DNA from: Candidatus Eiseniibacteriota bacterium
Lineage (GTDB): Bacteria; Eisenbacteria; RBG-16-71-46; CAIMUX01; VGJL01
Direction of reading: 5' to 3'
NCBI GenBank assembly: GCA_041946735.1
Contig: JBHGAY010000024.1
Location: forward strand, 6,114 to 70,113
DNA length: 64,000 nucleotides
A program made the position numbers and the translations under genes. Every line of letters begins with the position of its first letter. Position 1 is the first letter of the stretch. Positions 1-36,091 of this stretch are shown here, in pieces. The notes under the pieces were generated by a model, which was not told where the DNA came from, searched no databases, and was given only the letters and a program-made list of their open reading frames with translations.

Positions 1-110
1 TGGAAAGCCGAAGTCGACGGGAAAGTCGACGGGAGAGCCAACGGGAGAGTCGATGGTGGAGTCGATCGGTGGAGTCGATGGTCGAGTCGATCGGTGGAGT
101 CGAACGGCTA
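1..110. repeat. imperfect tandem repeat, ~12-nt unit (approx GGAGTCGAYGGT) x ~8
   Basis: Read directly: successive units gaagtcgacgg/gaaagtcgacgg/gagagccaacgg/gagagtcgatgg/tggagtcgatcgg/tggagtcgatgg/tcgagtcgatcgg/tggagtcgaacgg. Lies 3' of the transketolase-like gene at the window edge. Confidence 0.6.
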
Positions 111-192
111 AAGCGACGACGCGGCGCCGCTGCCCGGGATCGACTCCCGGCAGTGGCGCCGCGCCGTTTTTCGAGGGCGATCCGTTCCGCGC

Positions 193-2583: not shown

Positions 2584-2686
2584 CCTCCCTTCCCCATGCC
2601 AGGCGGCTGTTGAAGAATCCCTTATGCAGCGTAGCCGAGCTTCGCTTCCGGGACAAGCGGGAAGCGACCGCGCGGAGGTTGTCGGC

Positions 2687-4252
2687 TCAGCCGTTCGGGT
2701 CGTGGGGCGCGGAAGCCGGCCGCTCCCCCGCGATCGGCTCGCGGCGCCACGCGCCGTCGCCGGAGATCCAGTTCGCGGCCAGATCCGTAGCGTCCTTCAC
2801 GCACTGGTTCACGGCGACCCCGCGATACGCGTTCCCGAGGAGGCCGAGGCGGCGTCCACCGCCCGGATCGAGGCGCGCGAGCCTGCCCGCGATCCTCTCC
2901 AGCCGGGCGCCATGTCCGATCTCGTACTGCGGAATCCCGAGCGGATGGCGGAAGAGATGCACCCGCCGCGGGGGCGCCTCGATCCCCATGCTCTTGCGCA
3001 ACTCGTCGCGGACGATCGCGACGATCTCTTCGTCGGGCAGCGAAGCCGCCTGCGGATCGTGCGCGCCGCCGAGCATCGCGCGGACGAGCACCCATCCCTC
3101 CGGCGCGCGGTGCGAGAAGACGGAGGAATCCCAGAGGCAGCCCAGGATACGCAGTCCCTGCCCGCGCGGAACGAGGAAGCCGAATCCGTCGGGAACGGAC
3201 GCGAGATCGGACACCGGCCAGGCGAAGGCGGCGACGGCGAGCGGCGCCGAAGCGATCCCCGCGAGATCGGTGGCCATCGGCTCGTCGAGCGGGCGCAGGA
3301 TCCGCGCGGCCGCGCCGGCGGGGACGGCGATCACGACCCGCTCTGCCTCGAACGATTCCCCGTCCTGGGTGGCGAGGACGAATGCGCCCGAGCCTTCGAC
3401 GCGTGAGATCGACGCCACCGGGCGGCCGAGGCGGACCCGGTCGGCGCCGAGACGCTCGCCGAGGCGCTCGATCAGGGTTTCCATGCCGTCTCGAAACGAG
3501 GTGAGGACTCCCGAGGGACCCGATGGGCCGCCGCGCCCGTTCTTCTTCCGTCCCCCGCCCTCGCGCTCCCGTCCTTCGCGCGCCCGTCCGTCGCGCGCCC
3601 GTCCGTCGCTGGCCCGTCCGTCGCGGGCCCGTTCGTCCCGCGCCCGCCGCGCCTCGCTCCGCCTGGCGAGCATCGCTCGCACGAGACTGCCGTGGTCGCG
3701 CTCCATCGCCGCCATCTTCGGGAAGGTGCTGGCGAGCGAGAGCTTCCTCGCATTGCCGGCGTAGACGCCCGACACCATCGGATCGACGAGGAACTCCGCC
3801 GCTTCCCGCCCGATGCGCCGCGCCGCGAAGTCGAAGACCGTTTCGTCTCCTTCGGGACGGCGAGGCGCAAACGGCTCCCACAGCACCCGGAGCCGCCCGC
3901 GCACCGAGAGGATGTCGGAACGAAGGAAGCGGGGTGGCGCAAGAGGGATCTCGCGAAGCCGTCCCTCTCGCCAGAGAAAGCGCCGGCCGGCTGCGTCGCG
4001 CGCCCGCTCGAGCTCCGCGTCGAGGCCGAGATGCGAAACGAGCGCGAGCGTCTCCGGGACGGAGTCGAGAAAGCCGTTCACGCCCCACTCCACGACGAAG
4101 CCGTCCTCGCGCAGGGAGCGGATGTTGCCGCCGAGCCGCGACGCGCCCTCCAGGACGAGGAGGTCCGTGCTCGGCCTCCGCCGGAGGATCTCGAAGGCGC
4201 TCGCGAGCCCGGCGATGCCTCCGCCCGCCACGACAACCTCGAGCTTCCTCAC
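2687..4252 (-). CDS. hemY: protoporphyrinogen oxidase (FAD, HemY/PgoX class)
   Basis: The LEVVVAGGGIAGLASAF dinucleotide-binding fold follows a GTG at codon 49 of the track ORF (GAGGAAG Shine-Dalgarno just upstream). PPOX-like body with FGFLVP and GNAYRGVAVNQCV C-terminal motifs. The track N-terminal 48 aa are Arg-rich filler. Last gene of the hem operon. Confidence 0.75.
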   Translation of the reverse strand: MRKLEVVVAGGGIAGLASAFEILRRRPSTDLLVLEGASRLGGNIRSLREDGFVVEWGVNGFLDSVPETLALVSHLGLDAELERARDAAGRRFLWREGRLREIPLAPPRFLRSDILSVRGRLRVLWEPFAPRRPEGDETVFDFAARRIGREAAEFLVDPMVSGVYAGNARKLSLASTFPKMAAMERDHGSLVRAMLARRSEARRARDERARDGRASDGRARDGRAREGREREGGGRKKNGRGGPSGPSGVLTSFRDGMETLIERLGERLGADRVRLGRPVASISRVEGSGAFVLATQDGESFEAERVVIAVPAGAAARILRPLDEPMATDLAGIASAPLAVAAFAWPVSDLASVPDGFGFLVPRGQGLRILGCLWDSSVFSHRAPEGWVLVRAMLGGAHDPQAASLPDEEIVAIVRDELRKSMGIEAPPRRVHLFRHPLGIPQYEIGHGARLERIAGRLARLDPGGGRRLGLLGNAYRGVAVNQCVKDATDLAANWISGDGAWRREPIAGERPASAPHDPNG

Positions 4253-4262
4253 CGGAGCTTCC

Positions 4263-5333
4263 TCACCGGCGGCGCTCTCCTTCCCGCGCTTCCGTTCCTC
4301 CCCGTCCCGCCCGCGCGCCTGCTCCCCCTTCCGCTCGCGCCCCGGCTCTCTCCTCCGCCGCCTCGAACGCTCCGATTGCGATCGCGGCGAGCGCATCCAG
4401 GAAGGCCGGGTCGCTGTTGAGCGACGGCACGCGCGCGAAGCGCGCGATCCCGGCGCGCCGCGCCTCCTCTCCGAAGAGCATGTCGATCTCGTAGAGCGTC
4501 TCGATGTGGTCGGAGACGAATGCGACGGGGATCGCGAGGACGCAGCGCCGCCCGGCGAGCGAGCGAATCACCTCGTCGGTCCCCGGGCCGACCCACCGTA
4601 CCGGTCCGACGCGGCTCTGGAATCCGAGCCGGTGCTCCGGGCGCCGCCCCAGCGTTCCCTCGAGCGAATGCATCACGGCGTCGACCGTCTCGCGGATCTG
4701 CCGCACGTACGGATCGCCGCGCCGCGCGAGCCGCTCCGGCACCCCATGGGCGCTGAACAGCAGCACCGCCTCCGCGCGGTCCTCCTCGTCGAGTCGGTCG
4801 AGCGCCTCCACGATCCGTCCGACGAGCGCCGCGACGTAGCCCGGATGCTCGTGATAGCTATGGACGATGTCGATCGTCATCGCCGGCGCCACCCGGTCCC
4901 GGGCGGCGCCGAGATCGGCGAGGCTCGAGCCGGTCGTGGCGCGGCACTCGTGCGGATAGAGAGGCAGAGCGAGCGCCCGCTTCTCGCCCGCTTCGACGAG
5001 CCGCGCGAGCGCCTCCTCGGCGAACGGCGGCGCGTAGCGCATCGCCACCTCGACCCGTACGCCGGGCTTCCCGCGTCGGGCGAGCGCGCGCTCGAGGCCG
5101 CGCGCCTGCTCGCGCGTGAGACGCAGCAGCGGCGATCCCCCGCCGATCCGCGCGTAGAGCTTCCGCACCCGAGGCGCCCGCGCCGCCGTGATCGCCCGCG
5201 CGAATGCCGGCTGCACCCACCGCCCGCCCGGCAGCGCGATCAGCATCGGATCGGAGAAGAGCCGGAGCAGGAACGGCCGCACGTCGTCGAGCGTCTCCGG
5301 CCCCCCCATGTTCAAGAGGACGATCGAAGCCAC
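4263..5333 (-). CDS. hemH: ferrochelatase
   Basis: MASIVLLNMGGPETLDDVRPFL start, HSYHEHPGYV, LLFSAHGVP and SDHIETLYEID motifs typical of HemH. The stop lies 10 nt before the hemY start. Confidence 0.85.
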   Translation of the reverse strand: MASIVLLNMGGPETLDDVRPFLLRLFSDPMLIALPGGRWVQPAFARAITAARAPRVRKLYARIGGGSPLLRLTREQARGLERALARRGKPGVRVEVAMRYAPPFAEEALARLVEAGEKRALALPLYPHECRATTGSSLADLGAARDRVAPAMTIDIVHSYHEHPGYVAALVGRIVEALDRLDEEDRAEAVLLFSAHGVPERLARRGDPYVRQIRETVDAVMHSLEGTLGRRPEHRLGFQSRVGPVRWVGPGTDEVIRSLAGRRCVLAIPVAFVSDHIETLYEIDMLFGEEARRAGIARFARVPSLNSDPAFLDALAAIAIGAFEAAEERAGARAEGGAGARAGRGGTEAREGERRR

Positions 5334-5336
5334 GCC

Positions 5337-6734
5337 CTAGACCGTCCTCGAGAAGACCGGCTGCCCCGACGCCTGCTTCGCCGCGAGGTAGGCGTCGAAG
5401 AGCATGCAGACGTTCCGGACGAAGAGGCGCCCGGTCTGCGTCACCCGCACCCGGTCCGCCTCGACCTCGACGAAGCCGTGCTCCTCGGGGACCTTCAGCT
5501 CCTCCAACTCGCGCGCGAAGTAGGCGCGGAAGTCGATGCCGAAGCGCTCCTCGATCCCCGCGAGGCGGACCTCGAAGTTGCACATCAAGCTCGCGATCAC
5601 GACCTGCCGGATGCGGTCGTCCACCGACAGCTCGTATCCCTTCTCGATCGGCAGCCGCCCTTCGTCGAGCGCCGGGTAGTAGGTGGAGAGCTTCTTCACG
5701 TTCTGCGCGAACGCGTGCCGGACGTTGCCGATCGAGCTGATCCCGATCCCGACCTGGTCGGCCGCCGGCATGACGGTGTACCCCATGAAGTTCCTGTAGA
5801 GGCGCCCCTCCGCCTGCGCGATCGACAGCTCGTCCTCCGGCAGAGCGAAGTGGTCCATCCCGATCTGCCGGTACCCCGCCGCCGTGAACGCCTCGAGCGC
5901 CTGCAGGAACAGCTCGAACTTCACCTCCGGCGGCGGCAGCGTCGCCGGGTCGGTCTTCTTCTGGTTGCCCCGGATCCAGGGAACGAACGCGAAGCTGTAG
6001 ACGGCGACCCGGTCGGGACGCATCGCCACCACCTGCTCCAGATTCTTGCGGAAGGTCGCGACCGTCTGCATCGGGAGCCCGTAGATCAGATCCACGTTGA
6101 TCGACGAGAAGCCGATCCCGCGGCAGTATTCGTACAGCTCGACCGTCTGCTCGAGCGACTGGTTGCGGGCGATCGCGGCCTGCACCTCCGGCGTGAAGTC
6201 CTGCACCCCCATCGAAAGCCGCCCGAAGCCGATGTCGCGCAGCGTGTCGATCTGCTCGCGCGATGTGACGCGCGGGTCGACCTCGATCGCGATCTCCGCC
6301 TCCGGCGCGATCGTGAAGTGGCGCCGGATCTCGGACATCAGGTCCCGCATCTCCTCGGACGTCTGATAGGTCGGCGTCCCGCCCCCCCAGTGCACCTGAT
6401 TGACGAGCCGGCGGTGGGGCAGGCGGGAGGCGACGAGAGCCGTCTCCTTCTTCAGGTACTCCAGATAGCGGCGCGTGATCTCGTGCTTGTGCGTAATGAT
6501 CACGTTGCATCCGCAGAACGTGCAGCGCTCGTGACAGAACGGCAGATGGAAGTAGAGCGAGAGCGGCTCGCCCGAGCGCGCATCCGCCTCCGCCAGCTTG
6601 CGCTCGTAGGCGGCGGAGTCGAACCGTTCGTGGAACTCGACGGCCGTCGGATAGGACGTGTAGCGCGGGCCCGGCCTGTCGTAGCGCCGCAGCAGCTCGG
6701 CGGTCACGCGCCTCGGGGTCGTCTCTTCGATCAT
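5337..6734 (-). CDS. hemN: oxygen-independent coproporphyrinogen III oxidase (radical SAM HemN)
   Basis: Starts MIEETTPRR. Has the RYDRPGPRYTSYPTA HemN signature, the CHERCTFCGC 4Fe-4S motif and GGGTPT. 465 aa. GGAAGGAAG Shine-Dalgarno upstream. ATGA overlap with the hemE stop. The 327-aa N-terminal extension in the track ORF is spurious. Confidence 0.9.
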   Translation of the reverse strand: MIEETTPRRVTAELLRRYDRPGPRYTSYPTAVEFHERFDSAAYERKLAEADARSGEPLSLYFHLPFCHERCTFCGCNVIITHKHEITRRYLEYLKKETALVASRLPHRRLVNQVHWGGGTPTYQTSEEMRDLMSEIRRHFTIAPEAEIAIEVDPRVTSREQIDTLRDIGFGRLSMGVQDFTPEVQAAIARNQSLEQTVELYEYCRGIGFSSINVDLIYGLPMQTVATFRKNLEQVVAMRPDRVAVYSFAFVPWIRGNQKKTDPATLPPPEVKFELFLQALEAFTAAGYRQIGMDHFALPEDELSIAQAEGRLYRNFMGYTVMPAADQVGIGISSIGNVRHAFAQNVKKLSTYYPALDEGRLPIEKGYELSVDDRIRQVVIASLMCNFEVRLAGIEERFGIDFRAYFARELEELKVPEEHGFVEVEADRVRVTQTGRLFVRNVCMLFDAYLAAKQASGQPVFSRTV

Positions 6735-7906
6735 CGGCTTCTTCCTTCCGGCCGGCCTGCTTCCTTCTCGCCGCGCCCCGCGGGCGGGCCCGCCGCGGCG
6801 CCGCCGGGGTTCCGTGCGGCACCGCCCGCGCTCGACGCGGCATGCGCCGCCTCGACGAATGCCTGCGCGTTCTCGACCGGGGTCTCCGGCAGGATGCCGT
6901 GCCCCAGATTCAGAACGTGCCCCTTCAGCCCGCGCGCCTGCTCGAGGATCTCGCGCGTCCGCGCGACGATCGTCTCCGGCCGCCCCAGCAGGATGCCGGG
7001 GTCGAGATTCCCCTGCAGCGCGAAGCGATCCTGCAGGACTTTCCGCGCCTCGGCGAGCGAGATCCTCCAGTCGATTCCGATCACGTCCGCCCCGACCGTC
7101 GCGATCCGCTCGAGCGCCCCCATCGCGCCCGGCGCGAAATAGATCCTCGGAACGCCGTCGCGCCGCACCCGCTCCAGCACCTCGCGCGCATACGGCAGCG
7201 CGAACGCCTCGTAGTCCTCCGGAGAGAGGATCCCCGCCCAGGAATCGAAGAGCTGGACGGCCTGCGCGCCCGCCGCGATCTGCCGCTCGAGCGAGACGAC
7301 GGCGGCGTCGGTGATACGCCGCAGCAGGCGGTGGGCCGCCTCCGGATCGCCGAAGAGCAGCGAGCGCATCTCGACGTGGTTGCGCGAGCCTCCTCCGCCG
7401 GTCGCGTAGGCGGCGACCGTGAACGGGGCGCCGGCGAATCCGATCAGCGGCACGGCCCCGTCGAGCGCGCGCCGGATCGATCGGACCGCGTCGTCCACGC
7501 GATCGAGGATCGGGCTGCCGGACGGATCGCGGAGACGATCGACGTCGGCGGCGACGCGGATCGGGTCGCGAATCTCGGGCGCCGGATGGAACTCGATCGA
7601 CAGCCCCATCGCGGCGAGCGGCACCAGGATGTCGGAGAACAGGATCGCCGCGTCGACTCCGAGCCGCCGCACCGGCTGCAAGGTCACCTCGGTCGTCAAC
7701 TCGGGAATCGTGCACATCTCCCAGAACGTGTGCTTCTCCCGAAGCGCCCGATACTCAGGCAGGAAGCGCCCGGCCTGCCGCATGATCCACACGGGGGCCG
7801 CGTCGACCGGCAGGCCCCGGCAAGCGCGCAGGAATCGCTCGTTCTTCGTGGGGCTCGGAATGCCTGGCGTGCCTGCCGCACCGACCCCCGCGCCGGTCCC
7901 GCTCAT
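6731..7906 (-). CDS. hemE: uroporphyrinogen decarboxylase
   Basis: From Met89 of the track ORF: FLRACRGLPVDAAPVWIMRQAGRFLPEYR is the canonical HemE N-terminus, and the fold matches to the end. The low-complexity C-terminal tail overlaps the hemN start. Confidence 0.85.
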   Translation of the reverse strand: MSGTGAGVGAAGTPGIPSPTKNERFLRACRGLPVDAAPVWIMRQAGRFLPEYRALREKHTFWEMCTIPELTTEVTLQPVRRLGVDAAILFSDILVPLAAMGLSIEFHPAPEIRDPIRVAADVDRLRDPSGSPILDRVDDAVRSIRRALDGAVPLIGFAGAPFTVAAYATGGGGSRNHVEMRSLLFGDPEAAHRLLRRITDAAVVSLERQIAAGAQAVQLFDSWAGILSPEDYEAFALPYAREVLERVRRDGVPRIYFAPGAMGALERIATVGADVIGIDWRISLAEARKVLQDRFALQGNLDPGILLGRPETIVARTREILEQARGLKGHVLNLGHGILPETPVENAQAFVEAAHAASSAGGAARNPGGAAAGPPAGRGEKEAGRPEGRSR

Positions 7907-7919
7907 GCTCTCGTCCCGC

Positions 7920-9218
7920 TCATGCTCTCTCCCCCTGCGCGACCGCCAGCGACTCGCGGGCCGCCGCGACGACGCGATCGATCTCCTCTTCCGTGTGCGC
8001 GGCCGACAGGAACCATGCCTCGAACTGCGATGGCGCGATGTAAATCGACCGCCGCAGCATCTCGCGGAAGAAGATGGCGAAGCGCCCGGTGTCCGCCTCG
8101 CGCGCCTCGTCGGCGTTCTGCGGGAGGAACGGACGGAACCACAGCGTCCCGAGCGAGGCGATCCCGACATAGGAGGACTCGCCGCCGAGATCGGCGACGG
8201 CGCGGTTCAGTCCTGCCGCCAGGCGCGCGCCCAGCGCCTCGAGACGCCGGTAGACCGCGCCGTCGCGCAGCATCTCGAGCGTAGCGCGTCCGGCCGCGAC
8301 GGCGAGCGGATTGCCGGACAACGTCCCGGCCTGGTAGATCGGTCCCTCGGGGGCCAGGTAGCGCATCCAGTCCCTCCGTCCCCCGTACGCGCCGACCGGA
8401 AGGCCGCCGCCGATCACCTTCCCGAGCGTCGTCAAATCGGGCAGGACGGAGAAGCGCTCCTGCGCGCCGCCCCATCCGAGCCGGAACCCGGTGATCACCT
8501 CGTCGAAGATCAGCGCCGCCTTCTCGCGATCGCAGATGTTCCGCAGTCCCTGCAGGAACCCGTGCGCGGGGAGCAGGCAGCCGATGTTCGCCGCGACCGG
8601 TTCGACGATGATCGCCGCCAGCCGCCCCGGATTGTCGGCGACGATCCGCTCGACCGAGGCGAGGTCGTTGTAGCGGGCGACCGCCGTATCCCGCGCCATG
8701 CCCGCCGTCACACCGGGACTGCTCGGATAGCCGAGCGTCGCTGCGCCCGAGCCGGCCTGGATCAGGAAGGAATCGGCGTGGCCGTGATACCCGCCGTCGA
8801 ACTTGATCAGGAGATCCTTGCCGGTCACGCCGCGCGCCAGGCGCAGCGCGCTCATCGTCGCCTCGGTGCCGGAACTGACCAGCCGCACGCTCTCGATCGA
8901 GGGCACCGCCTCGACGATCGTCTCGGCCATCTCGATCTCCGTGACGGTCGACGCTCCGAAGCTCGTGCCGTCGCGGGCCGCCCGCGTGATCGCCTCCACG
9001 ACCGGCTCGGGCGCGTGGCCGAGGATCAACGGCCCCCACGATCCCACGAGGTCCAAGTACTCCCGCCCCTCCTCGTCCCAGACATGCGATCCGGCGCCGC
9101 GCCGCAGGAACGGCGGCCCGCCACCGACCGCGCGGAACGCTCGTACCGGCGAGTTGACCCCTCCCGGGATCACCCGCAAGGCGCGCTCGAAGAGCGACGC
9201 GTTGCTCACCGCAGCCAT
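7920..9218 (-). CDS. hemL: glutamate-1-semialdehyde 2,1-aminomutase
   Basis: C-terminal 432 aa of the 799-aa track ORF: [28 protein letters not shown] plus a class-III aminotransferase body. The upstream 367 aa are spurious and overlap hemB in another frame. Confidence 0.9.
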
Positions 9219-10177
9219 CGGGCCGCCTCCTTCGCGAAGTAGGTGAGGATCAGATCCGCTCCGGCGCGGCGGATCGCGGTCAGCGTCTCGAGCGCCGCCG
9301 CGCGCCGGTCGATCCAGCCCCGCTCGGCGGCCGCGCACAGCATCGCGTACTCGCCCGATACGTTGTAGGCGGCCACCGGCAGGTCGAACTCGCTGCGCAC
9401 GCGCAGGATCACGTCGAGATAGGCAAGCGCCGGCTTCACCATCACGATGTCGGCCCCTTCCTCGACGTCGAGCGCGACCTCGCGCAGCGCCTCGCGCGCG
9501 TTCGCCGGATCCATCTGGTATCCCTTCCGGTCGCCCGAACGCGGCGTCGATTCGGCCGCTTCCCGAAACGGACCGTAATAGGCGCTCGCATACTTGGCGG
9601 CGTAGGAGCAGATCGCCGTCTGCTCGAAACCCGCCTCGTCGAGCGCGGAGCGGATCGCGCCGACCCGTCCGTCCATCATGTCGGACGGAGCGACCACGTC
9701 GGCGCCGGCGCGCGCATACGCGAGGGCCGCGCGCGCGAGCAGGTCGAGCGTCGCGTCGTTGTCGACCGTCCCGTCGCGCAAGACGCCGCAATGTCCGTGG
9801 TCGGTGTACTCGCAGAGGCAGACGTCCGCCCAGATCGAAAGCCCCGGCAGCGACTCGCGCAGCGCGCGGATCGCCCGCGGCACGATCCCCTCGTCGTCGT
9901 AGCCCTCCGTGCCGGTGGCATCCTTGCGCTCCGGAATCCCGAAGAGGATGACCGCCGGGACGCCGGCGGCCTGCGCCTCGCTGCACTCCTCGACGAGACG
10001 GTCGATCGAGAGCCGCTCGACCCCCGGCATCGAGGAGACCGGCTCGCGGAGCCCGCTCCCATGCCTCACGAACAACGGCAGGATCAGATCGTCGACCGAG
10101 AGACGCGTCTCGCGGACCATTCGCCGTATCGTCTCGTTGCGCCGCAAGCGCCGGGGGCGCTCGGCCGGAAAGCTCAT
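9206..10177 (-). CDS. hemB: porphobilinogen synthase (ALA dehydratase)
   Basis: [18 protein letters not shown] start, Cys-rich Zn site [15 protein letters not shown], and active-site Lys region [16 protein letters not shown] overlap with the upstream gene's stop. Confidence 0.9.
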
Positions 10178-11766
10178 CGCAAACCTCCCTCGATCCGGTC
10201 CCTCGTGATCGGACGGCCGGCACCGGCGGGGGCGGCGCCGCTACCGCCGCCGCCATCGCCGATTGCCTCCCCGGTCGCCTCCCTGCCGCTCGCCGGCTGC
10301 GCGTGACCGAGCAGCGCACGCTCGACCGCCTCCGCCATCCCTTCGTTCGAAGCCTCCCGCGCCTCCGCGTCCGGAGCCATGCCGAGCGAGCGCATCGCGG
10401 CCGCCGTCGTCGGACCGATCGCCACGACGCGGGGCCGCGGAGCGGGCGCTTCCCGCCACGCGCGGCCGAGCAGCGCCTCGAACGCGCGCGCCCCCGACGG
10501 GCTCGTCAGGCAGATCGCGTCGATCCTGCCCGCGAGGAGATCCGCCTCGATCGCTTCGAACGCGACGCCGCCGGAGAGCTCCGTGCGGTACGCGACGACC
10601 TCCGTCACCTCGACGCCGGCCGCGCGCAACCGCGCCGGCAACTCGGGCTGCGCCTGCTCGGCCCGCGGCAGGAGCGCGCGGAGTCCCGCAGGCCGATCGA
10701 CTCGCGCGAGCAGCGCGCCGGCGAGCGCGCCCCCGGTGGCGGTGGCCGCCACGAGATCGCACCGGCCGAAACGGTCACGCGCGCGGGCCGCCGTCGCCTC
10801 GCCCACCGCGCCGATCGCGGGACGATTCCCGGACAGCGGCCGGCCGGCCCCAGCCGGCGCCGCGCCGCCTTCCGTCGCGTCGGCGAACGCATCGACCCCG
10901 CGCGCGCTCGTGAAGAGGACCCAGTCGTACGAGGCCGCCCGGGCCGCAGCCTCCTCGAGCGGACGTCGATCCCGCGGGGGCTGCGTCACGAGCAGGGGCA
11001 GGTGGAGCGCAACTCCCCCGCGCCGCTCGATCGCAGCCGCCAGGCCGTCCCCCTCCTCGCGCGTCACGAGAATCCGCGCTCCCCGCAGCGTTCCGGCGAT
11101 CCCGCTCCCCGCCGCGGCGCCTCCTGCCCCGAGGCCGCGCCACACGAAGTCGAAGAGCTGCTCGGGCTCCGCGTTGCCGCGTTGCGCGGCCTTCCCCTCG
11201 GCGAGACACCGCAGCGCCGCTCCCTCCAGCGCGCCGAGCACCAGATCGGTCGCCATCTCGACCGGCATCGCGCGCACGCTTCCTTCCGCAAGCCCTCGCT
11301 GCAGCTCTTCGCGCAGCAGGGAGCGGAGCCGGTCCCATCGGGGCGCCGCGCCGCCCTCCACCGCGCTGCCGATCGGGCAGGCCTCCTCCTTGCGCATCAT
11401 GCGGAAGAAGTTCGGGTAGCGGAGCAGGAACAGGAGGACGTGGACGAGGATCTTCCTCAAGCGGAGCTTCGAGCTCTCCTCCCCCTCGAACGCCGCGCGC
11501 AATCCCTCCATCAGGTGATCCATGCGCGAGTCGAGGATCGAGAGGTAGAGGTTCTCCTTCGAGGGGAAGTACAGGTAGAGCGTCCCCTTCGCCACCCCGG
11601 CGCGTTCCGCGAGCTCTTCCATCCGGACCTGGGAAAGCTCGCGCCCGGCGAAGAGCCCCGCCGCCGCTTCGAGGATCTCCTCGCGCCGGCTCCGGCCTCC
11701 GCCGCCGGCAGCGCCGTTGCCGTTCGCGCTCCTCGCGCGCCCGCCTCCCGCCTCCGCCGCCATCAC
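10174..11766 (-). CDS. hemD: TetR-family HTH regulator fused in frame to uroporphyrinogen-III synthase
   Basis: The N-terminal ~200 aa match a TetR HTH plus TetR_C domain ([46 protein letters not shown]). From about aa 230 the sequence matches HemD ([11 protein letters not shown]...[15 protein letters not shown]...[11 protein letters not shown]). There is no stop codon between the two parts. ATGA overlaps on both sides, with hemC and hemB. Confidence 0.6.
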
Positions 11767-12803
11767 GGCTCCCCCGGCTGCGCCGCTCCGCGCGCCCGCG
11801 CCTCCGCGAGAAGCTCCTTCGCCCCGGAGGCGAGAAGCTCGGCGGCCAGCGCGACGCCGGTCGCCTCGGCCTCCGCGATCGTCCCCTCGCGCGCGCCTCG
11901 AAGCAGCTTCCGCCCGTCGGGATCGGAGACCATCGCCTCCAGCCGCAGCCGCGGCCCTTGCCCCTGCCCCTTCCCCTGCCCCTGCCCCTGCGGATCTTGC
12001 GGGACGATCCGCGCCAGCGCCCCCACCGGAACCTGGCAGCCTCCCCCCAGCGCGTGCAGGAAGGCTCGCTCCGCCGTCACCGTCGCCCGCGTCACGGGAT
12101 CCTCCAGGCGCGCGAGAAGCGTCGCCGCCCAGCCGTCCGCCTCGCGGATCTCGACGCCCAGCGCCCCCTGCGCCGGCGCCGGCAGCAGCAGGGAGGCCGG
12201 CAGGACTTCCGTCACGTGACGAAGCAGGCCGAGCCGCGCAAGACCGGCGTGCGCGAGGACCACCGCGTCCAGCTCGCCCCCGAGCGCCTTCTCGAGTCGC
12301 GTGGGGACGTTGCCGCGCAGCGGCAGGATCTGCAGATCGCCGCGCGCGTGCAGCAGCTGCGCCCGCCGCCGCAGGCTCGAGGTCCCGACCCGCGCCCCCT
12401 GCCGCAGGTCCGCGAAGCTCGACGCCCCGCTCGCGACGAGGACGTCGGCCGGCTCTTCCCGCGACAGGATCCCGCCGAGCGCGAGCCCGCCGGGCAGCTC
12501 GGTCGGAAGGTCCTTCAGGCTGTGCACGGCCAGGTCGATCGAGCCGGCGAGCAGAGCGCGCTCGATCTCCTCCGTGAACAGTCCCTTGCCACCGATCTCG
12601 GCGATTGGCTGGTTGAGGGCTCGATCCCCGCGGGTCGAGAGGATCTCGATCCTCACCTGGAGATCCGGCTCCAGCTCGCGCAGTCGCGCCGCGACGTGCT
12701 CCGCCTGCCAGCGCGCGAGCGCGGATCCGCGCGAGCCGATCGTGAGCTGCCGGCCGGCGCCGGGAGCAGGACCGCGCGCGCCCGCGTCAGCCGGCGTTTC
12801 CAT
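11763..12803 (-). CDS. hemC: hydroxymethylbilane synthase (porphobilinogen deaminase)
   Basis: LTIGSRGSALARWQAEHV, KGLFTEEIE, HSLKDLP and the dipyrromethane cofactor Cys in GGGCQVPVGA. Contains an in-frame Gly-Gln repeat insert (QGQGQGKGQGQG). Confidence 0.9.
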   Translation of the reverse strand: METPADAGARGPAPGAGRQLTIGSRGSALARWQAEHVAARLRELEPDLQVRIEILSTRGDRALNQPIAEIGGKGLFTEEIERALLAGSIDLAVHSLKDLPTELPGGLALGGILSREEPADVLVASGASSFADLRQGARVGTSSLRRRAQLLHARGDLQILPLRGNVPTRLEKALGGELDAVVLAHAGLARLGLLRHVTEVLPASLLLPAPAQGALGVEIREADGWAATLLARLEDPVTRATVTAERAFLHALGGGCQVPVGALARIVPQDPQGQGQGKGQGQGPRLRLEAMVSDPDGRKLLRGAREGTIAEAEATGVALAAELLASGAKELLAEARARGAAQPGEP

Positions 12804-14067
12804 CGTGCCCTCCCAGTCCGAAGAGATGGCGGATCGTTTCGAGCGGCGCGAATCCGTCCGGACCGAGCCGCTGATATCCCCGGATCCGCACGCTCGGCTC
12901 GTGCAAGAGCTTGTTGACGATTCCGCGCGTGAGCGCGTCGAGCTGCTCGCGATCCTTCTCGCAGAACTTCCTGCCGAACCGTTCGACCTCCTGCGCCCGC
13001 ACCTCCTCGAAACGATCGCGAAGCGCCTTCAAGATCGGCGCCGCCCCGAGCGACTCGTACCAGCGCAGATACTGCTCGGTCTCATGGCGGATGATGCTCT
13101 CGACCTTCGGGATCTCCTTCGCGCGCCGCTCCAGGTTCTTCTGCACGAGGTCCTGCAGCGAGTCGACGTCGTAGAGAAACACGTTCGGCAGATCGCGCAC
13201 GGCCGGCTCGACGTCGCGCGGCACGGCGATGTCGAGGATCAAGAGCGGTCGATTGCCGCGGGCGGCGAGCGCGCGCTTCACCGTCTCGTAGCGGACGATC
13301 GGGACGGGAGAAGCGGTGGCGCTGACGACGATGCTCGCGATCGTGAGCGCCCCCTCCAGCTCGGCGAAGGGAATCGCCCGGCCGCCCAGCATCCCGGCGA
13401 GCGAGGCCGCATGCTCCGGCGTGCGATTGGTCACGAGAAGCTCGCCGATCCCCTGGTCGCACAGGTGCCGGGCGGCAAGCGCCCCGGTCTCTCCCGAGCC
13501 GATCAGCAGCGCCGTCTGCTGGCCCATGTCGGAGAAGATCCGCGAGGCGAGGGCGACGGCGGCGAAGCTCACCGACACCGCCCCGGACCCGATCTCCGTC
13601 TCGGTCCGCACCCGCTTGCCGACCCGGAAGGCGGCCTCGAGGAGGCGATGGAACAGCGGCCCGGCCGTCCCCGCGCGCCGCGCGATCTCGAACGCCTCGT
13701 GGACCTGTCCCAGGATCTGCACCTCTCCGACGACCATCGAGTCGATCGACGACGCCACCCGGAAGAGATGGCCGACCATCGACTCCCCGCAATAGCGGTA
13801 GAGGCTGTCCGCGTGCGCCGCGAGGTCCACGCCGCGCTTCTGCTGGACGAGCGCGCGGAAGTGCCGCTCGAGCGGCTCGCTCCCCTCGGCCAACGCGTAC
13901 ATCTCGGTTCGGTTGCAGGTGGAGAGGAGCATCCGCTCGAAGATCGGCTCTCGATCGCCGAGCGGAACGCGCAGCGTCTCCTCCGCCTCGGCCGGAGTGA
14001 AGGCGACACGCTCCCGCAGCTCGATCCCGGCGGTGCGATGGTTCAGGCCGACGACGATGAGCTCCAT
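12787..14067 (-). CDS. hemA: glutamyl-tRNA reductase
   Basis: From Met150 of the track ORF: MELIVVGLNHRTAGIELRERVAF, the catalytic-Cys region LSTCNRTEMY, and the NADPH domain GSGETGALAARHL. The 149-aa N-terminal extension is spurious. Confidence 0.9.
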   Translation of the reverse strand: MELIVVGLNHRTAGIELRERVAFTPAEAEETLRVPLGDREPIFERMLLSTCNRTEMYALAEGSEPLERHFRALVQQKRGVDLAAHADSLYRYCGESMVGHLFRVASSIDSMVVGEVQILGQVHEAFEIARRAGTAGPLFHRLLEAAFRVGKRVRTETEIGSGAVSVSFAAVALASRIFSDMGQQTALLIGSGETGALAARHLCDQGIGELLVTNRTPEHAASLAGMLGGRAIPFAELEGALTIASIVVSATASPVPIVRYETVKRALAARGNRPLLILDIAVPRDVEPAVRDLPNVFLYDVDSLQDLVQKNLERRAKEIPKVESIIRHETEQYLRWYESLGAAPILKALRDRFEEVRAQEVERFGRKFCEKDREQLDALTRGIVNKLLHEPSVRIRGYQRLGPDGFAPLETIRHLFGLGGHDGNAG

Positions 14068-14894
14068 GCCGGTCCCGCGAAGTGGTGGAAGCTGTGAAGG
14101 AATGCCCCGACGAGGAGAAGCGCGATCCCCATCAGGAGGAATCCGGAGATCGACAGGTAGATCGCGCGCTTCCCTCGCCATCCCAGCCGGTAGTACGCCA
14201 GCACGCATGCCAGATAGATGCACCAGACGGTGACGGTGAGCAGGAACATCGGATCGCGCGTGAAGCCGTGCACCAGGCGACTCGCCCAGAAGATCCCCGC
14301 CACGATCGCGACGGTCAGCGACGCGAGGCCGAGCACCGCCGCGCGGATGTTCATCCGCCCGAGGACGTCGAGCGGCGGGAGCCTCCGGTAGACGAGGCCG
14401 AAGCGCGAGGCCTTCAGCTCGTGATAGAGCAGGAGGAACAGGAAGCCGTAGATCGCCGAGACGGCGAACGCCGCATAGCCGAGGATCGCGAAGCCGGTAT
14501 GCAGTCCGAACCACGGCAGCCGCAGCAGCTCCGGCACCTCCGCATCGAGCGCGATCCGCCCCGAGGAGGCGAACTGCAACAGGGTCGAGAACGCGAGCAG
14601 GAAGAAGCCGGTCGAGAGGTTCTTCGTGCGCGTCTCCACGTAGAAGTATGCGACCGCCGTAGCGAAGGCGATCACCGAGAGGAACTCCGGCGCGTTGGCG
14701 AGCGGCATGCGCCGGTGCGCGAGCACGAACGAGACGAGATAGAGGAGGTGGACCGAGAGCGTTGCCATCAGCGCAGGACGCGCCATGCGCCCGATACGGT
14801 CCCCCCGGCCGAAGAAGACGTATCCATAAAGGAGGAAGGTCGCCACGTAGAGCGTGGGGACCGCGCAGCGAAGGACGGCGAGCAGAGTGCTCAT
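14043..14894 (-). CDS. CcsA-like cytochrome c assembly family membrane protein (HemX-like), first gene of the hem operon
   Basis: 283 aa with about 8 predicted TM helices and a Trp/aromatic-rich segment. The position immediately upstream of hemA mirrors Bacillus hemAXCDBL, where HemX is a CcsA-family protein. Confidence 0.65.
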   Translation of the reverse strand: MSTLLAVLRCAVPTLYVATFLLYGYVFFGRGDRIGRMARPALMATLSVHLLYLVSFVLAHRRMPLANAPEFLSVIAFATAVAYFYVETRTKNLSTGFFLLAFSTLLQFASSGRIALDAEVPELLRLPWFGLHTGFAILGYAAFAVSAIYGFLFLLLYHELKASRFGLVYRRLPPLDVLGRMNIRAAVLGLASLTVAIVAGIFWASRLVHGFTRDPMFLLTVTVWCIYLACVLAYYRLGWRGKRAIYLSISGFLLMGIALLLVGAFLHSFHHFAGPAWSSSSSA

Positions 14895-15204
14895 TGGGGG
14901 ACCGAGCGCGTCACGGCGGCAACCTCCTGGTTCGGCGCCCCGCAGCCTCCCGCGGCTGCCGAACGCGCGGCGCGGCCTGCACTGACCGGTCAGTTCATCG
15001 CGAATCGTAACGAGACCGTTCTGCGGGGGTCAATGACCATTGGGTAATCGTTCTAACGTTGCGAGAAAGAGAATCTGGTGGGTTGGCCCGGCGGCCGGGA
15101 GGGTACGACCTCCCGTGAGCCCGCGCCTGCGCGGCGCGGCCCCTCGCGGGATCTGGCTCGACTTTCGCGATTTGCGGACCTGCGATCCGGATGTTCCGGA
15201 GGAC
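14895..15204 (-). promoter_or_regulatory. probable promoter/leader of the hem operon: locally lower-GC segment with small dyads (AACGTT-type, GCAGCCTCCCGCGGCTGC) and a GGGAGG-N7-CCTCCC hairpin that may terminate parA
   Basis: It is the only lower-GC stretch near the operon start (cagttcatcgcgaatcgtaacgagaccgttctg...ggtaatcgttctaacgttgcgagaaagagaatc). No -10/-35 elements were confidently assigned. Confidence 0.3.
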
Positions 15205-15954
15205 CTAGAAGGGCCTCTCCTCCTTGTCGAGGAACGCCTTCACCAGCTCGCTGAAGTCCTCGGCACCGCTGCTGCCGGGGGCGGTCACCTGGATCGGCGC
15301 ATGGAATCCGCCCGCCTCGGCGAGCCGCGCGTTCTCACGGATCGGCGGCAAGACGGAGGCGCCGTACACCTCGCGGAGCGTCGCCTCTACCTTCCCGCTG
15401 AGCCGTGTGCGCACCGTCCGGTTAGGGACGATTCCGGCAATCCGCAGGCGAGGATTGCGGTGCCTCTGCACCTGCTCCACGACCTCGATCAGAAGCCCGA
15501 GGATCTGGAGGTCCAGTTCGCGGGTCGTGACCGGCACGATGACGCCGTCGACCGACGAAAGGCTGGCGACGAGGAGCGATCCCCAGGTCGGCGGCGTGTC
15601 GATCAGGACGTAGTCGATCTCGGGGTCGACCTGCCCCACGAGATTCGCAAGCCGCTCCCGCGTCGGATGCGCGCCGTTGTCGAACGGGGCGAGCATCCGG
15701 TTCCCCGGGGCGATCGTGAGGCCGGTGACCAGGGTGCTGGTCAGAACGTCGGCCAGCCGCTTCTCGCCGGCGAGGCTGTCCGCCAGGTTGCCGTTACAGG
15801 ACCGGGGAAGCAGATGGAAGCTGCTCGATCCCTGCGGATCGAGGTCGAAGAGCACGACGTTGCGTCCAGCCAGGGCCAGCCCGGCCGCGAGATTGACGGC
15901 GATCGTGGTCTTGCCCGATCCGCCCTTGATGTTGGCGATCGCGTACGATCTCAT
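15205..15954 (-). CDS. ParA/Soj/MinD-family P-loop ATPase
   Basis: MRSYAIANIKGGSGKTTIAVNLAAGLA is the deviant Walker A KGGxGKT motif. 249 aa. Confidence 0.8.
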   Translation of the reverse strand: MRSYAIANIKGGSGKTTIAVNLAAGLALAGRNVVLFDLDPQGSSSFHLLPRSCNGNLADSLAGEKRLADVLTSTLVTGLTIAPGNRMLAPFDNGAHPTRERLANLVGQVDPEIDYVLIDTPPTWGSLLVASLSSVDGVIVPVTTRELDLQILGLLIEVVEQVQRHRNPRLRIAGIVPNRTVRTRLSGKVEATLREVYGASVLPPIRENARLAEAGGFHAPIQVTAPGSSGAEDFSELVKAFLDKEERPF

Positions 15955-16684: not shown

Positions 16685-17559
16685 CGCGTTTCCTCCGGGA
16701 CTTCGGCAGCTCCGTAGACCGCGTCCGGCCCCAGCCTCTCCGGAAACCGCCCTCGAAGCTCCCTGCGCGCGAGGAAGCAGAGATGGCAAGCATCCGCGAA
16801 GCGGCCGCGCAGGGGCAGACCGTGCTCCTCGACGAGGGCTGCCGGACCGCCCCGCGCGAGAGGCCCGAGGACCGGATCGGAGTCCGGGTCATAGCCGTGC
16901 ACGAGGTCGGCAAGGCTGTTCCACCAGAGGCTGCCGATCAGGACGCCATGGCAGAGGTGGACGTTGCCGAATGGGTCGACCCAGACCGCACGGGGATCGC
17001 GCACGCGCCCGTGCGCGCACGAGGTCCAGGCGCTCCAAGGGCGCGTGCCGGGAAGCGTCTTGCCCCCGAGCGCAAGTCCCAGCGCGAGCGCGGCGCGGCC
17101 GTTGTGCTCGAGCGCCTCGCTCGCCGGCTCCGCCTCGATCCCGATGTTCGCGGCGACGGCCAGCGCGCGGTCGGCGCGCGAATGATCCCCGCGGAAGATG
17201 TGGAACCGATCCCGGCTGACGACGAGCCGGTCGAGGCGAGCCTCGCGCAGCGGGTCGAGCCAGGCGACGGCCGCAGCCTCGTCGCTCGCCCAGTCTCCGT
17301 TGGTGTGGGCCGTGACACGGAAGCCGAGCGCCTTCGCCTCGCGAACCCCTTCGAGCAGCACCGGGAAGTAGAGGAACGGCTCCCCGCCGTCGAAGTGCAC
17401 CTCCTCGACCGTCCCCAGCTCCGCCGCGTCGGCGAGGATGCGGCGCACCTCCGCGCAGCCCATCGCCCCCTGCTGCTCGGGAGAGCCGAAGACGTAGCAG
17501 TGCTCACAACGGTAGACACAGCGGTACGTGAGCAGGAGACCGAGAGATTGGAGACGCAT
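16681..17559 (-). CDS. radical SAM domain protein (~292 aa)
   Basis: From Met90 of the track ORF: MRLQSLGLLLTYRCVYRCEHCYVFGS carries the CxxxCxxC motif. GGAAGGAG Shine-Dalgarno upstream. Several C-terminal Cys/His residues (LCHG, CHLCF). Confidence 0.65.
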   Translation of the reverse strand: MRLQSLGLLLTYRCVYRCEHCYVFGSPEQQGAMGCAEVRRILADAAELGTVEEVHFDGGEPFLYFPVLLEGVREAKALGFRVTAHTNGDWASDEAAAVAWLDPLREARLDRLVVSRDRFHIFRGDHSRADRALAVAANIGIEAEPASEALEHNGRAALALGLALGGKTLPGTRPWSAWTSCAHGRVRDPRAVWVDPFGNVHLCHGVLIGSLWWNSLADLVHGYDPDSDPVLGPLARGGPAALVEEHGLPLRGRFADACHLCFLARRELRGRFPERLGPDAVYGAAEVPEETR

Positions 17560-17805
17560 CGTCTCGCTCCTTCCATCGGCAAGCAGAACGAGGGCCGGCC
17601 GTCGCAGTTTAGTCGAGCGCGCGCGCGTCGCGCAAGGACCGCGCCGGCGCTGCCGAACCCCGCGGGAGCCCGGCGGGAGCGCCGCGGGGGCAGCGCGGGA
17701 GGCCTGGTTGCGCGACGTCCGTCCGGGGCCGAGAATCGGCGGCGACCGCTCCACGCCGGCGGCGTGCCGGCGCCACGTATCCGACTCGCGCCGAGGGAGG
17801 TTTCC

Positions 17806-18858
17806 GTGAGATCTCTCCGCTTCCACGGAGTCGTTCGGGCCGCTGCCCTTTTCGCCTTCGCCGCGTCGATCGCCGCCGCTCCCGTTCGGGCGGCCGATCC
17901 GGTGAGCACCTTCTCCTGCGTCGGCTACGACCCGGAGACCGGCGACCTGGGCGTCATCGTCCAGTCGAAGTTCTTCGCGGTCGGGGCCGTCGTTCCGTGG
18001 GCGCGAGCGGGGGTCGGCGCGATCGCGACCCAGGCGTTCGCGAACACGACCTTCGGACCCCGGGGCCTCGACCTGCTCGCGGAAGGCAAGAGCCCCCAGG
18101 AGGCGATCGAAGCGCTCACGCGGCCCGACTCGCTACGCGATCGGAGGCAGGTCGGCATCGTGGACGCGACCGGCCGCAGCGCGACCTACACGGGTCCCGA
18201 ATGCCAAACCTGGGCCGGCGGGACGGCCGGCGCCGGCTTCGCCGCGCAGGGGAACATCCTCGCGGGCGAGGAGGTCGTGCGACGGATGGCGGCGGCGTTC
18301 CAGTCGACCGCCGGCATGCTGGGCGACCGCCTGCTCGCCGCGCTGGAGGCGGGACAGTCCGCGGGCGGGGATTCGCGCGGCATGCAGTCCGCCGCGCTGC
18401 TGATCGTCCGCAAGAACGGCGGCTACGGGGGCTACGACGACCGCTATTGCGACCTCCGCGTGGACGACGCGGCCGATCCGATCGCCGAGCTGCGGCGCCT
18501 CTATCAGATGTGGAAGCCCAACGCCCTGGTGACCGAGGGCTACCGGCTCGTCGAGGAGCGGCAGTTCGCGCGCGCGTACGACCTCGGCCAGGAGGCCGTG
18601 GCGCTCCAGCCGGAAGCGGGCGAGTACCGCTACCATCTCGCCTGCTACTACTCGCGTGGCGGGGAGCGCGAAAAGGCGATCGAGACTCTCGGCGAGGCGC
18701 TTCGCCGGGACTCCTCGCTGGCGCAGAACGCGGTCCGCGATCCGGACCTCGCCCCCTTGAAGGACGATCCGCGATTCGGCCGGATGCTGGAGGCGGCGAC
18801 GAAGGCCCGCTCAGGAGACGCGAAGGGATCGAAGGAGCCCGAGCAAGGTGGGAACTGA
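17806..18858 (+). CDS. secreted DUF1028-family (Ntn-hydrolase-like) protein with a C-terminal TPR-like tail
   Basis: GTG start after GGGAGG. Signal peptide VRSLRFHGVVRAAALFAFAASIAAAPVRA, then TFSCVGYDPETGDLGVIVQSKFFAVGAVVPWARAGVGAIATQAF...DLRVDDAADPIAELRRLY matching DUF1028. The tail is YRYHLACYY... Confidence 0.6.
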   Translation: MRSLRFHGVVRAAALFAFAASIAAAPVRAADPVSTFSCVGYDPETGDLGVIVQSKFFAVGAVVPWARAGVGAIATQAFANTTFGPRGLDLLAEGKSPQEAIEALTRPDSLRDRRQVGIVDATGRSATYTGPECQTWAGGTAGAGFAAQGNILAGEEVVRRMAAAFQSTAGMLGDRLLAALEAGQSAGGDSRGMQSAALLIVRKNGGYGGYDDRYCDLRVDDAADPIAELRRLYQMWKPNALVTEGYRLVEERQFARAYDLGQEAVALQPEAGEYRYHLACYYSRGGEREKAIETLGEALRRDSSLAQNAVRDPDLAPLKDDPRFGRMLEAATKARSGDAKGSKEPEQGGN

Positions 18859-34889: not shown

Positions 34890-36091
34890 CCCCGCCTCCG
34901 CATCAGGGCCTGGATCGGATCGAGACGCGCTGCGCGCCGGGCCGGCAGGATCCCGAACGCGAGCCCGACCGAAGTCGAGACGGCGAGCGCGGCGACGACC
35001 GCCCAGACGGGGGGACGCGCCGGAAAGTCCGGGAAGAAGCCCTGGAAGATCCGGCCCCCGAGGATGCCGATCGCGAGGCCGAGGATCCCGCCCGCGGTCG
35101 AGAGGATCGACGCCTCGAGCAGGAACACGGCGACGATCTGGCGGGAGCCGACGCCGACCGCCTTCAGCAGTCCGATCTCGCGGGTGCGCTCGGAGACCGA
35201 GACGAGCATCACGTTCATGATCCCGATTCCCGCCACCGAGAGCGAGATCGCGGCGATCCCGGCGAGAGCGGCGGTGAGCATCCCGAGGATCTTCTGGAAC
35301 GTCGAGAGGACCGCATCCTGCGTGAGCGTCGTGAAGTCCTCCTCGCCGTCGTGGCGCTGCTTCAGGATCTCGATCGCACGCTCCCGCGCCGGCTCGATCG
35401 CCGGCGCGCTTCGCAGCTCGATCAGCACACGGAAGAGGCTCCGGGCGTTGAGCAGACGCATGCCGGTCTCGATCGGGATGTGGACGGTCTCGTCCACGTC
35501 CATGCCGATCGAGGTGCCTCGCGGCGCGAGCACGCCGATGACGCGGAAGTTCGTGTCGCCGATCCGCACCTTCTCGCCCAGCGGATTGCGATGGCCGAAC
35601 AGCTCCTGCTGCACCTTGGCTCCCAGGACGGCGAACGGCGCGTCGCGCGTGCCCGGCGGGAAGTAGCGACCGATCCGCACCGACAGCTTGCGCACCTCGC
35701 GCATGTCGTCGGTCGTCCCAAGCACCATGATGTCTCGGCTCCGGTCGCCGACGCTCGCCGCGGCGCTGCCGACGACGAGCGGAGCGGCGCGCACGATCTC
35801 CGGCATCTGGCGCTCGAGCGCGCCGACGTCCTCGAGGGTCAGGTCGTGCGGCGCGGTGTTGACGACCGGCGCTCCGCCCTGCGTCTCCGTCTTGCCGGGC
35901 AGGAGAATCAGGAGGTTCGAGCCGAGCGACGCGAACTCACCGGTCACGTAGAGCCGCGCCCCTTCTCCGAGGCTCGTCAGGAGGACCACCGAGCCGACGC
36001 CGATCGCCACGCCGAGCAGCGAGAGGAAGCTCCGGAGGCGATGCCCGCGCAGCGCGCGCAGCGCGTAGCGCGCGAGATCGCGCGCCCTCAC
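34886..36091 (-). CDS. ABC transporter permease, FtsX/MacB family (second copy)
   Basis: Paralogous to the previous permease from [35 protein letters not shown] start overlapping the ATPase stop (GTGA). The upstream 200 aa of the track ORF are Arg/Gly filler. Confidence 0.7.

Follow-up and report, generated by a model that had tools for sequence, protein, structure and literature searches.

In the trigger enzymes BirA, PutA and NadR a single chain serves both as pathway enzyme and as repressor, and the catalytic state of the enzyme controls binding to DNA. How heme synthesis is controlled at the level of transcription is known in detail for just a few model bacteria, which use unrelated regulators for it. 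Members of the TetR family that act in heme homeostasis, namely HrtR, HatR and FhtR, bind heme in the C-terminal domain and are thereby released from DNA (PMC6303022, PMC7858072), and a HEM4 domain, the Pfam family of uroporphyrinogen-III synthase (HemD), is combined with a DNA-binding domain in NnaR, the actinobacterial regulator of nitrate/nitrite assimilation, which is devoid of HemD activity and is found alongside a true HemD (PMC6277429). The subject of the present analysis is a gene of a Candidatus Eiseniibacteriota bacterium, at 10174..11766 on the minus strand (-) of a 64-kb stretch of contig JBHGAY010000024.1 (64,000 nucleotides, referred to as the window; all positions are those of the window), in which a TetR-family DNA-binding regulator is fused in frame to HemD. 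We consider it probable, at roughly 0.7, that the product is bifunctional, acting as HemD enzyme and as TetR-type autorepressor of the whole heme (hem) operon. In the literature no description of a TetR-HemD fusion was found (in one search 'tetr' also matched 'tetrapyrrole'), nor of a TetR-family regulator of a hem biosynthetic operon, the Ignavibacterium album genome paper included, nor was the palindrome described below found there as a literal string; the protein thus appears to be uncharacterised. An earlier sequence-only reading of this DNA had held the architecture to be unknown among characterised heme regulators, which stands as far as papers are concerned and is to be amended as regards databases, since automatic annotation in IMG already labels some members 'uroporphyrinogen-III synthase/AcrR family transcriptional regulator'.

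The fusion gene is a single open reading frame (ORF) of 530 amino acids (aa) counted from GTG 11766, free of internal stops; its second codon is ATG 11763, and as this ATG is preceded by GGGGGAG the likely product is 529 aa. NCBI placed the start at the same ATG in P0001, a 100% identical database protein of 529 aa from a Candidatus Eisenbacteria metagenome-assembled genome (MAG), and named it only 'uroporphyrinogen-III synthase'. Pfam, AlphaFold2 and Foldseek delimit a TetR module at aa 27-212 (11131..11688 (-)), which comprises a helix-turn-helix (HTH) at aa 31-76 (11539-11676 (-), Pfam TetR_N) and a ligand/dimerisation domain at aa ~80-212 (within 11131..11688 (-)); the same tools together with alignment delimit a HemD module at aa 231-486 (10309..11076 (-)). 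Between the two lies a Gly/Ala-rich linker, aa 213-230 (11077..11130 (-)), which is predicted to be disordered and differs in length among orthologues, and the protein ends in a disordered tail, aa 487-530 (10177..10308 (-)), that is not conserved when orthologues are compared. The AlphaFold2 model of the fusion has a mean predicted local distance difference test score (pLDDT) of 79, with residues 213-230 and 489-530 disordered. NCBIfam recognised both halves, yet no equivalog model attains its cut-off. The sequence-only reading had described a complete TetR HTH and ligand-binding domain running without a stop codon into a complete HemD, and this description is borne out. It had also named, as grounds for doubt, an internal start that would produce only free HemD; that objection loses ground without disappearing, as no Met, Val or Leu start is conserved in the linker across orthologues, the sole in-frame GTG in the window sequence checked for internal starts is V234, inside the first HemD strand, and an AGGAGG in the linker is a product of Gly/Ala codons with no start codon at a suitable distance.

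By all sequence and fold criteria tested, the fusion is a member of both the TetR and the HemD family. In a search of Pfam domains, as the sequence-only reading had proposed, TetR_N (PF00440) matched aa 31-76 with 56.1 bits (cut-off 24; E=3.2e-15), and TetR_C_41 gave a weak match at aa 146-193, under its cut-off in the window protein; TetR_C_24, TetR_C_29 and TetR_C_41 are all recorded on orthologues. AlphaFold2 predicts nine helices across aa 27-212, and Foldseek against the PDB matched the N-terminal half with a probability of 1.00 to SlmA (4gct), YvdT (2f07) and FadR (3whb), and also to KstR2 and FasR. Invariance was assessed across 23 fused representatives at 23-49% identity. In the DNA-reading head A35, V47, K60, G61, T62, Y64, S69 and K70 are invariant, and the HTH residues are, across phyla, the best-conserved portion of the N-terminal half. 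Within the TetR ligand domain not one residue is invariant across clades, and in the TetR_C part no invariant His, Cys or Met and no invariant His pair was found. A helix 5 His, H109, occurs in 14 of the 23 and is absent from stand-alone relatives; as a clue to a heme ligand it is a lead only. By their C-terminal domain the hem-type TetR halves form a group of their own, marked by an alpha-6 motif KYPxFF..RKEE, an alpha-8/9 insertion and usually His109.

The C-terminal half was matched by Pfam HEM4 (PF02602) at aa 242-478, covering profile positions 3-230 of 231 (168 bits, E=2.3e-49). AlphaFold2 predicts a two-lobe alpha/beta domain at aa 231-486, and Foldseek aligned this half to the solved uroporphyrinogen-III synthase (U3S) structures 1jr2, 1wcx, 3re1 and 4es6 with a probability of 1.00, E values of about 1e-10 and target-normalised template modelling scores of 0.65-0.76. 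The motifs FTSxR, VGxxTA (G322/T325), TSPS (S422/S424) and IGPTT (G451/T454) are retained, human Tyr168 aligns with Y393 in a sequence alignment to human U3S (1jr2), and G322, T325, Y393, S422, S424, G451 and T454 are invariant across the representatives. These positions we take to be substrate-site residues, corresponding to Tyr168 of the human enzyme and to the Ser/Thr-rich loops of U3S. Together with the location in the genomic hemD slot, the invariant U3S residues argue that the C-terminal half would be a working enzyme, namely the pathway's own uroporphyrinogen-III synthase.

That slot lies within a row of ten tightly packed, mostly overlapping (-) genes, in which the fusion is the fourth: hemX/ccsA-like, hemA, hemC, tetR-hemD, hemB, hemL, hemE, hemN-like, hemH and hemY. 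The start of the fusion overlaps the stop of hemC (GTGA/TGATG) and its stop overlaps the start of hemB (ATGA); its placement inside the heme operon by the sequence-only reading proved correct. It is plausible that the ten genes form one transcription unit, given stop/start overlaps throughout and the lack of an internal terminator; no intrinsic terminator was found inside the hem cluster.

The fusion is not confined to this genome. PF00440 and PF02602 occur together in 14 proteins at 45-51% identity to the window protein and in two more at 31-36%, and an exhaustive profile search of 1.84 billion cluster representatives returned about 25 clusters (at 50% identity) matched over both halves in one stretch, which confirms, as the sequence-only reading had asked, that orthologues are fused in related genomes. 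Carriers are found among Candidatus Eisenbacteria-type MAGs, the Ignavibacteriota and one further clade, and every readable locus shows the fused gene at one and the same position of this operon, between hemC and hemB or hemE. At least 13 Ignavibacteriota species-representative genomes carry a full-length, single-frame fusion, which in an Ignavibacterium album MAG (L018) is a 485-aa ORF, and the order in this phylum is hemX-hemA-hemC-(small PepSY-like ORF)-tetR-hemD-hemE; a metagenome scan added mainly Ignavibacteria-type loci among the matches listed. Over all fused members 17 to 79 unconserved residues separate a conserved helix-9 Phe from the first HemD strand; in the clade of the window protein the linker spans about 19-79 residues between conserved anchors, and in the two other clades the distance is 17-24 residues. 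A variable, unconserved linker between two conserved domains marks a true protein of two domains and not the product of an erroneous read-through, and these comparisons show the fusion to be both real and old. The small Ignavibacteriota ORF, seen at L018:6334-6966 (~210 aa), has a signal-peptide-like N-terminus and a weak PepSY match (E=1.7e-4), and an equivalent gap of ~650 bp lies at the hemC/tetR-hemD junction of loci L006-L017.

HEM4 is a promiscuous fusion partner. Among more distant matches CobA-HemD (PF00590+PF02602) prevails, a plain HemC-HemD fusion is also present (P0036, 637 aa), and NCBIfam includes a model for fused HemD/HemX. Other combinations were encountered as well. P0028 (525 aa, from an Elusimicrobiota MAG) joins HEM4 to an inositol-monophosphatase-family domain, another unusual partner for HemD. 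P0065 (685 aa) consists of a HemC C-terminal domain, TetR_C and part of HEM4, and may have arisen by read-through of the 1-4 nt overlap between hemC and tetR-hemD. In P0017 (607 aa, on a 5.7-kb ENA contig) receiver domains replace the TetR HTH (two Response_reg, TetR_C_24 and HEM4), which hints that TetR_C-HemD is able to act as a unit alongside another input/output module; P0017 could also be a chimeric assembly.

A candidate operator emerged when the sequences preceding hemX in seven operons were aligned; they share one element, the near-perfect palindrome GAACTGACCGGTCAGT(T/C). In the window the predicted operator reads GAACTGACCGGTCAGTGC and lies at 14979..14996 (-), with its core at 14981-14995. 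The sigma70-like promoter of the hem operon has the -35 hexamer TTGACC (15028..15033 (-)) and, after an 18-nt spacer, the -10 hexamer TACGAT (15004..15009 (-)); TTGACC-18-TACGAT is the only sigma70-like match on either strand of positions 100-15300, and equivalent TTGACC/TTGCCC hexamers are present in nine related operons. The palindrome begins 7 nt past the -10 hexamer, at about +1 to +18. It was found upstream of hemX in all 11 TetR-bearing operons outside the Ignavibacteriota, starting in each 7-9 nt downstream of the -10 box amid otherwise unconserved DNA, a spacing from which a bound dimer would be expected to cover about +1 to +18. The exact palindrome occurs only once in the 64-kb window (14981-14995), and a search of the window for a second operator gave only AACTCACCGGTCACG at 35934-35949, with three mismatches, as chance could produce (that total count is reached in 4 of 100 shuffles). 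Directly after the operator, two related loci (L003:4918-4950 and L168:2918-2950) have in common a G+C-rich leader hairpin, GGGTCGGGCC(C/A)CGCCCGAC.

The same palindrome accompanies the same HTH outside hem operons. Among 136 stand-alone TetR genes, fetched solely via the shared HTH peptide VAKGT[LIV]Y, at least 49 carry it 16-240 bp upstream, as compared to ~0.05 sites expected by chance. These genes belong to Acidobacteriota, Planctomycetota, Deltaproteobacteria and others, stand, among other settings, ahead of HlyD/ABC-2 (ATP-binding cassette) or resistance-nodulation-division (RND) efflux genes, or have a radical-SAM gene or an aminotransferase as neighbour, and appear to be autoregulated. 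HTH and palindrome thus travel together, and the TetR of the hem operon evidently derives from an ordinary lineage of the efflux type; a ligand cannot be transferred from these relatives, as their C-terminal domains differ from the hem type. Within this set, a TetR subfamily with the operator (G/A)ACTGAC(C/T)GGTCAGT(T/C) before TetR-HlyD-ABC-2 operons was seen in several phyla (L040, L062, L105, L114 and others); it is widespread and apparently undescribed. In four Planctomycetota loci with a stand-alone TetR (L042, L044, L069 and L142) the palindrome occurs twice, ~25 bp apart and 130-210 bp upstream of the TetR gene (AACTGACCGGTCAGTC ... AACTGACTGGTCAGTC), where hem operons have a single site instead.

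In the Ignavibacteriota the exact palindrome is absent, even when up to two mismatches are allowed. A diverged form is found there at the same place, e.g. TATTTTTGAACTCACAAGTCAG directly after a TAnnTTTG box; its general pattern, RAC-N6-GTCA, often occurs twice and ~45 bp apart, and 13 of the 15 promoter regions carry it (23 sites observed against 0.23 expected). A strict position weight matrix trained on the other phyla only has its top match in the promoter for 7 of the 15 Ignavibacteriota loci.

Two kinds of natural variant inform on the relation between regulator, enzyme and operator. In the first, L020 (36% identity), TetR (208 aa) and HemD are separate genes in the same slot, translationally coupled by a TGATG stop/start overlap, and a perfect palindrome stands at the promoter; orthologues encoded always as separate genes, which the sequence-only reading had named as a finding that would speak against it, are not what is seen, this one relative being the case of separation. 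As L020 is split and nevertheless keeps both slot and palindrome, the regulator would need no covalent attachment to act. In the second, L169 and L170, an operon of the same type carries a plain HemD of 289 aa (P0049) without the TetR half. P0049 has 64-68% identity to the HemD halves of several fused proteins and nests within the fused clade; the TetR half was thus lost secondarily, since these HemD halves resemble P0049 more closely than they resemble the window protein. The sequence of L170 at the operator position is GTTCTGGCCAGTCAGTC, in which the left half-site is mutated, giving 3-4 mismatches as compared to 0-2 in all TetR-bearing operons. Loss of the TetR domain and decay of the operator thus coincide in L170.

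The conserved palindrome at the operon promoter, which is new in this analysis, suggests that the protein may shut off its own operon. In the working model that we favour, one polypeptide would carry a C-terminal uroporphyrinogen-III synthase and an N-terminal canonical TetR-family repressor, and a dimer of the TetR part would sit on the single palindrome GAACTGACCGGTCAGT, about +1 to +18 before hemX. Its occupancy would block transcription of the ten-gene operon hemX-A-C-[tetR-hemD]-B-L-E-N-H-Y. With the repressor encoded in the operon that it represses, and held at a fixed 1:1 ratio to a pathway enzyme, heme synthesis would come under negative autoregulation. A small molecule presumably lifts or adjusts the repression, and the simplest place for it to bind would be the C-terminal pocket that other TetRs use; that such an effector exists, and that the covalent link brings any advantage, is something that we infer, and a tetrapyrrole or pathway intermediate in this role is a guess. 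The autoregulation of the operon proposed by the sequence-only reading is in this way supported in silico: a conserved palindrome of the TetR type overlaps the predicted start of transcription, and the predicted operator lies exactly within the region 14895-15204 that it had put forward for an electrophoretic mobility shift assay.

Several points weigh against this model. The link between operator and TetR is correlative, and the TetR-loss control is a single case. The Ignavibacteriota pattern was chosen post hoc on related loci, and in the Ignavibacterium album locus L018 no RAC-N6-GTCA site was found directly upstream of hemX. A shared pocket ligand is not evident, since the TetR ligand domain lacks any invariant residue, and for a biosynthetic operon under end-product feedback one would not readily expect a repressor that is released by its ligand. 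A TetR paralogue encoded elsewhere could be the real binder, as stand-alone TetRs with the same HTH use the palindrome, and an internal start may yet yield some free HemD.

The model, in its simplest form, leaves the signal to the TetR pocket, where the sequence-only reading had suggested that the enzyme itself could be the sensor. On that alternative, hydroxymethylbilane or uroporphyrinogen III would close the HemD lobes, and the movement would pass via TetR helix 9 to the geometry of the dimer and its affinity for DNA, which would make the protein a genuine trigger enzyme that reports flux through the pathway. The fusion has been kept in three divergent clades, in two of which just 17-24 residues lie between the helix-9 Phe and the first HemD strand, and for the short-linker protein P0018 a single compact body is predicted (pLDDT 89.9, predicted template modelling score (pTM) 0.81), albeit pTM gives no direct view of the TetR-HemD interface. 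The HemD site, moreover, has invariant residues and the TetR ligand domain has none, and P0017 retains TetR_C and HemD together with the HTH swapped for receiver domains. Against this, a complete TetR ligand/dimerisation domain is still present, which would leave the protein a conventional place for a ligand, and the linker in the window's clade (19-79 residues) is long, unconserved and predicted to be disordered, which makes rigid coupling unlikely in that clade. Each half can, furthermore, function alone, as is indicated by the split genes of L020 and by L170, which lacks the TetR half. On these four grounds (the full TetR C-terminal domain, the L020 split, the variable disordered linker and the loss of TetR in L170) the claim that the enzyme is the sensor found no support here; we regard it as unlikely overall, less likely still in the window's long-linker clade, and most plausible in the P0018 group and the Ignavibacteriota.

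It is improbable that the TetR half no longer binds DNA, serving for instance as a scaffold for HemD dimerisation, and that a stand-alone TetR paralogue occupies the palindrome in its place. Stand-alone TetRs with an identical HTH do use the same palindrome, and cross-recognition is possible in principle, but the HTH is the best-conserved part of the N-terminal half, which is unexpected for a scaffold, the palindrome has decayed where the fused TetR half was lost, and no other related TetR gene is present in the window.

A role reversed with respect to this, in which the HemD-like half binds a ligand but has no catalytic role and the true HemD is the product of a gene elsewhere, has a precedent in actinobacterial NnaR, where a HemD-like domain without HemD activity is joined to a DNA-binding domain (PMC6277429). 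For the present protein it is very improbable. The domain order is TetR_N ... HEM4, and no Trans_reg_C match was obtained with Pfam, so that an NnaR-type architecture was not found; the fusion occupies the canonical hemD slot at every locus, in clusters that otherwise hold every step of the heme pathway except HemD; every residue conserved among the solved U3S enzymes is invariant; the TetR-less P0049, in the same slot, must be the enzyme; and no second HEM4 gene exists within the 64-kb window. An assembly or sequencing artefact, in which a lost stop or a frameshift joined two neighbouring genes, is hardly credible, for although the sequence is MAG-derived, neighbouring hem genes overlap by 1-4 nt such that single-base errors could fuse them, and P0065 may be a hemC read-through of such kind, the same in-frame fusion recurs in dozens of independent assemblies that differ in project, phylum, G+C content and linker, a conservation which effectively rules out the frameshift or lost stop that the sequence-only reading had considered.

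The remaining genes of the operon, all (-), are arranged as follows. The first, at 14043..14894, encodes a hemX/ccsA-like membrane protein (Cytochrom_C_asm PF01578, E=4e-21), and such a gene is also first in all related operons. It is followed by hemA for glutamyl-tRNA reductase (12787..14067, 426 aa) and hemC for porphobilinogen deaminase (11763..12803), the product of which contains a low-complexity insert (…PQDPQGQGQGKGQGQGPR…) near its C-terminal domain that splits the Porphobil_deamC match. Downstream of the fusion lie hemB for 5-aminolevulinic acid dehydratase (9206..10177), hemL for glutamate-1-semialdehyde aminomutase (7920..9218), hemE for uroporphyrinogen decarboxylase (6731..7906), a hemN-like radical-SAM gene (5337..6734, Radical_SAM and HemN_C), hemH for ferrochelatase (4263..5333) and, last of the cluster, a gene for a hemY-type oxidase (2687..4252, Amino_oxidase, start approximate). 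No HrtBA-like ABC genes were found in the hem cluster, where the neighbours of the fusion are heme biosynthesis genes. Rfam families and tRNA genes were likewise absent from the whole window, and an RNA element in the 109-nt leader was rejected, as its folding is no better than that of shuffles (z=+0.65).

Directly upstream of the hem promoter lies a ParA/MinD-like ATPase gene (15205-15954 (-)), conserved there in L003, L166 and L168 and preceded by aconitase in relatives, and further away a DUF1028 protein with a long N-terminal extension is encoded at 16783-18858 (+). Both strands of window positions 6700-15000 contain many very long ORFs that overlap real genes, e.g. 10303-12219 (+) of 638 aa; at ~72% G+C these are an expected by-product and give no evidence of genes.

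The locus provides a testable module for largely uncultured lineages (Candidatus Eisenbacteria and relatives, and Ignavibacteriota), composed of a defined repressor domain, a predicted operator of 16-18 bp, a promoter and a ten-gene regulon, with the split and TetR-lost variants as built-in controls. Ignavibacterium album is a named species with a cultured type strain and as such is an experimental entry point, though the L018 locus comes from a MAG. If the favoured model holds, a TetR member would be added to the short list of enzyme-repressor fusions, and the operator/repressor pair could serve as a synthetic-biology part responsive to tetrapyrrole metabolism. Should sensing prove to lie with the enzyme, the fusion would be the first regulator of the TetR family with an enzyme's catalytic cycle as its signal input, and the cell would read flux through the committed tetrapyrrole step at the promoter, a new mode of feedback in the heme pathway and a new signalling principle in the largest family of one-component regulators.

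In comparison with known systems, the fusion resembles BirA, PutA and NadR in that an enzyme and a predicted repressor are combined in one chain, and differs from them in having a separate TetR ligand domain; a link from catalytic state to DNA binding would in the fusion be hypothetical. HrtR, HatR and FhtR have heme efflux pumps as their targets, often in organisms lacking heme synthesis, and carry no fused enzyme; the apparent target of the fusion is, unlike theirs, a biosynthetic operon, with no efflux transporter adjacent, and an invariant axial ligand was not seen. In NnaR the order of the domains is reversed, the DNA-binding part is a winged helix of the OmpR type, and the gene lies outside hem genes, whereas the HEM4 half of the fusion has, as judged by its residues, all the hallmarks expected of a working enzyme. 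In other HemD fusions (CobA/CysG-HemD, HemC-HemD and HemD-HemX) the partners are enzymes of the same pathway or membrane proteins and not a DNA-binding regulator. Like TetR, QacR, AcrR, FadR and SlmA, the fusion has an N-terminal HTH, a nine-helix fold and a C-terminal ligand/dimerisation domain, and the palindromic operator of ~15-18 bp overlapping the promoter that is predicted here is likewise typical of TetR-family repressors. It departs from these repressors in that a 250-aa enzyme is attached covalently to helix 9, in that its gene lies mid-operon, 3 kb downstream of the predicted operator and not adjacent to it, and in that its predicted target is heme biosynthesis rather than efflux or catabolism.

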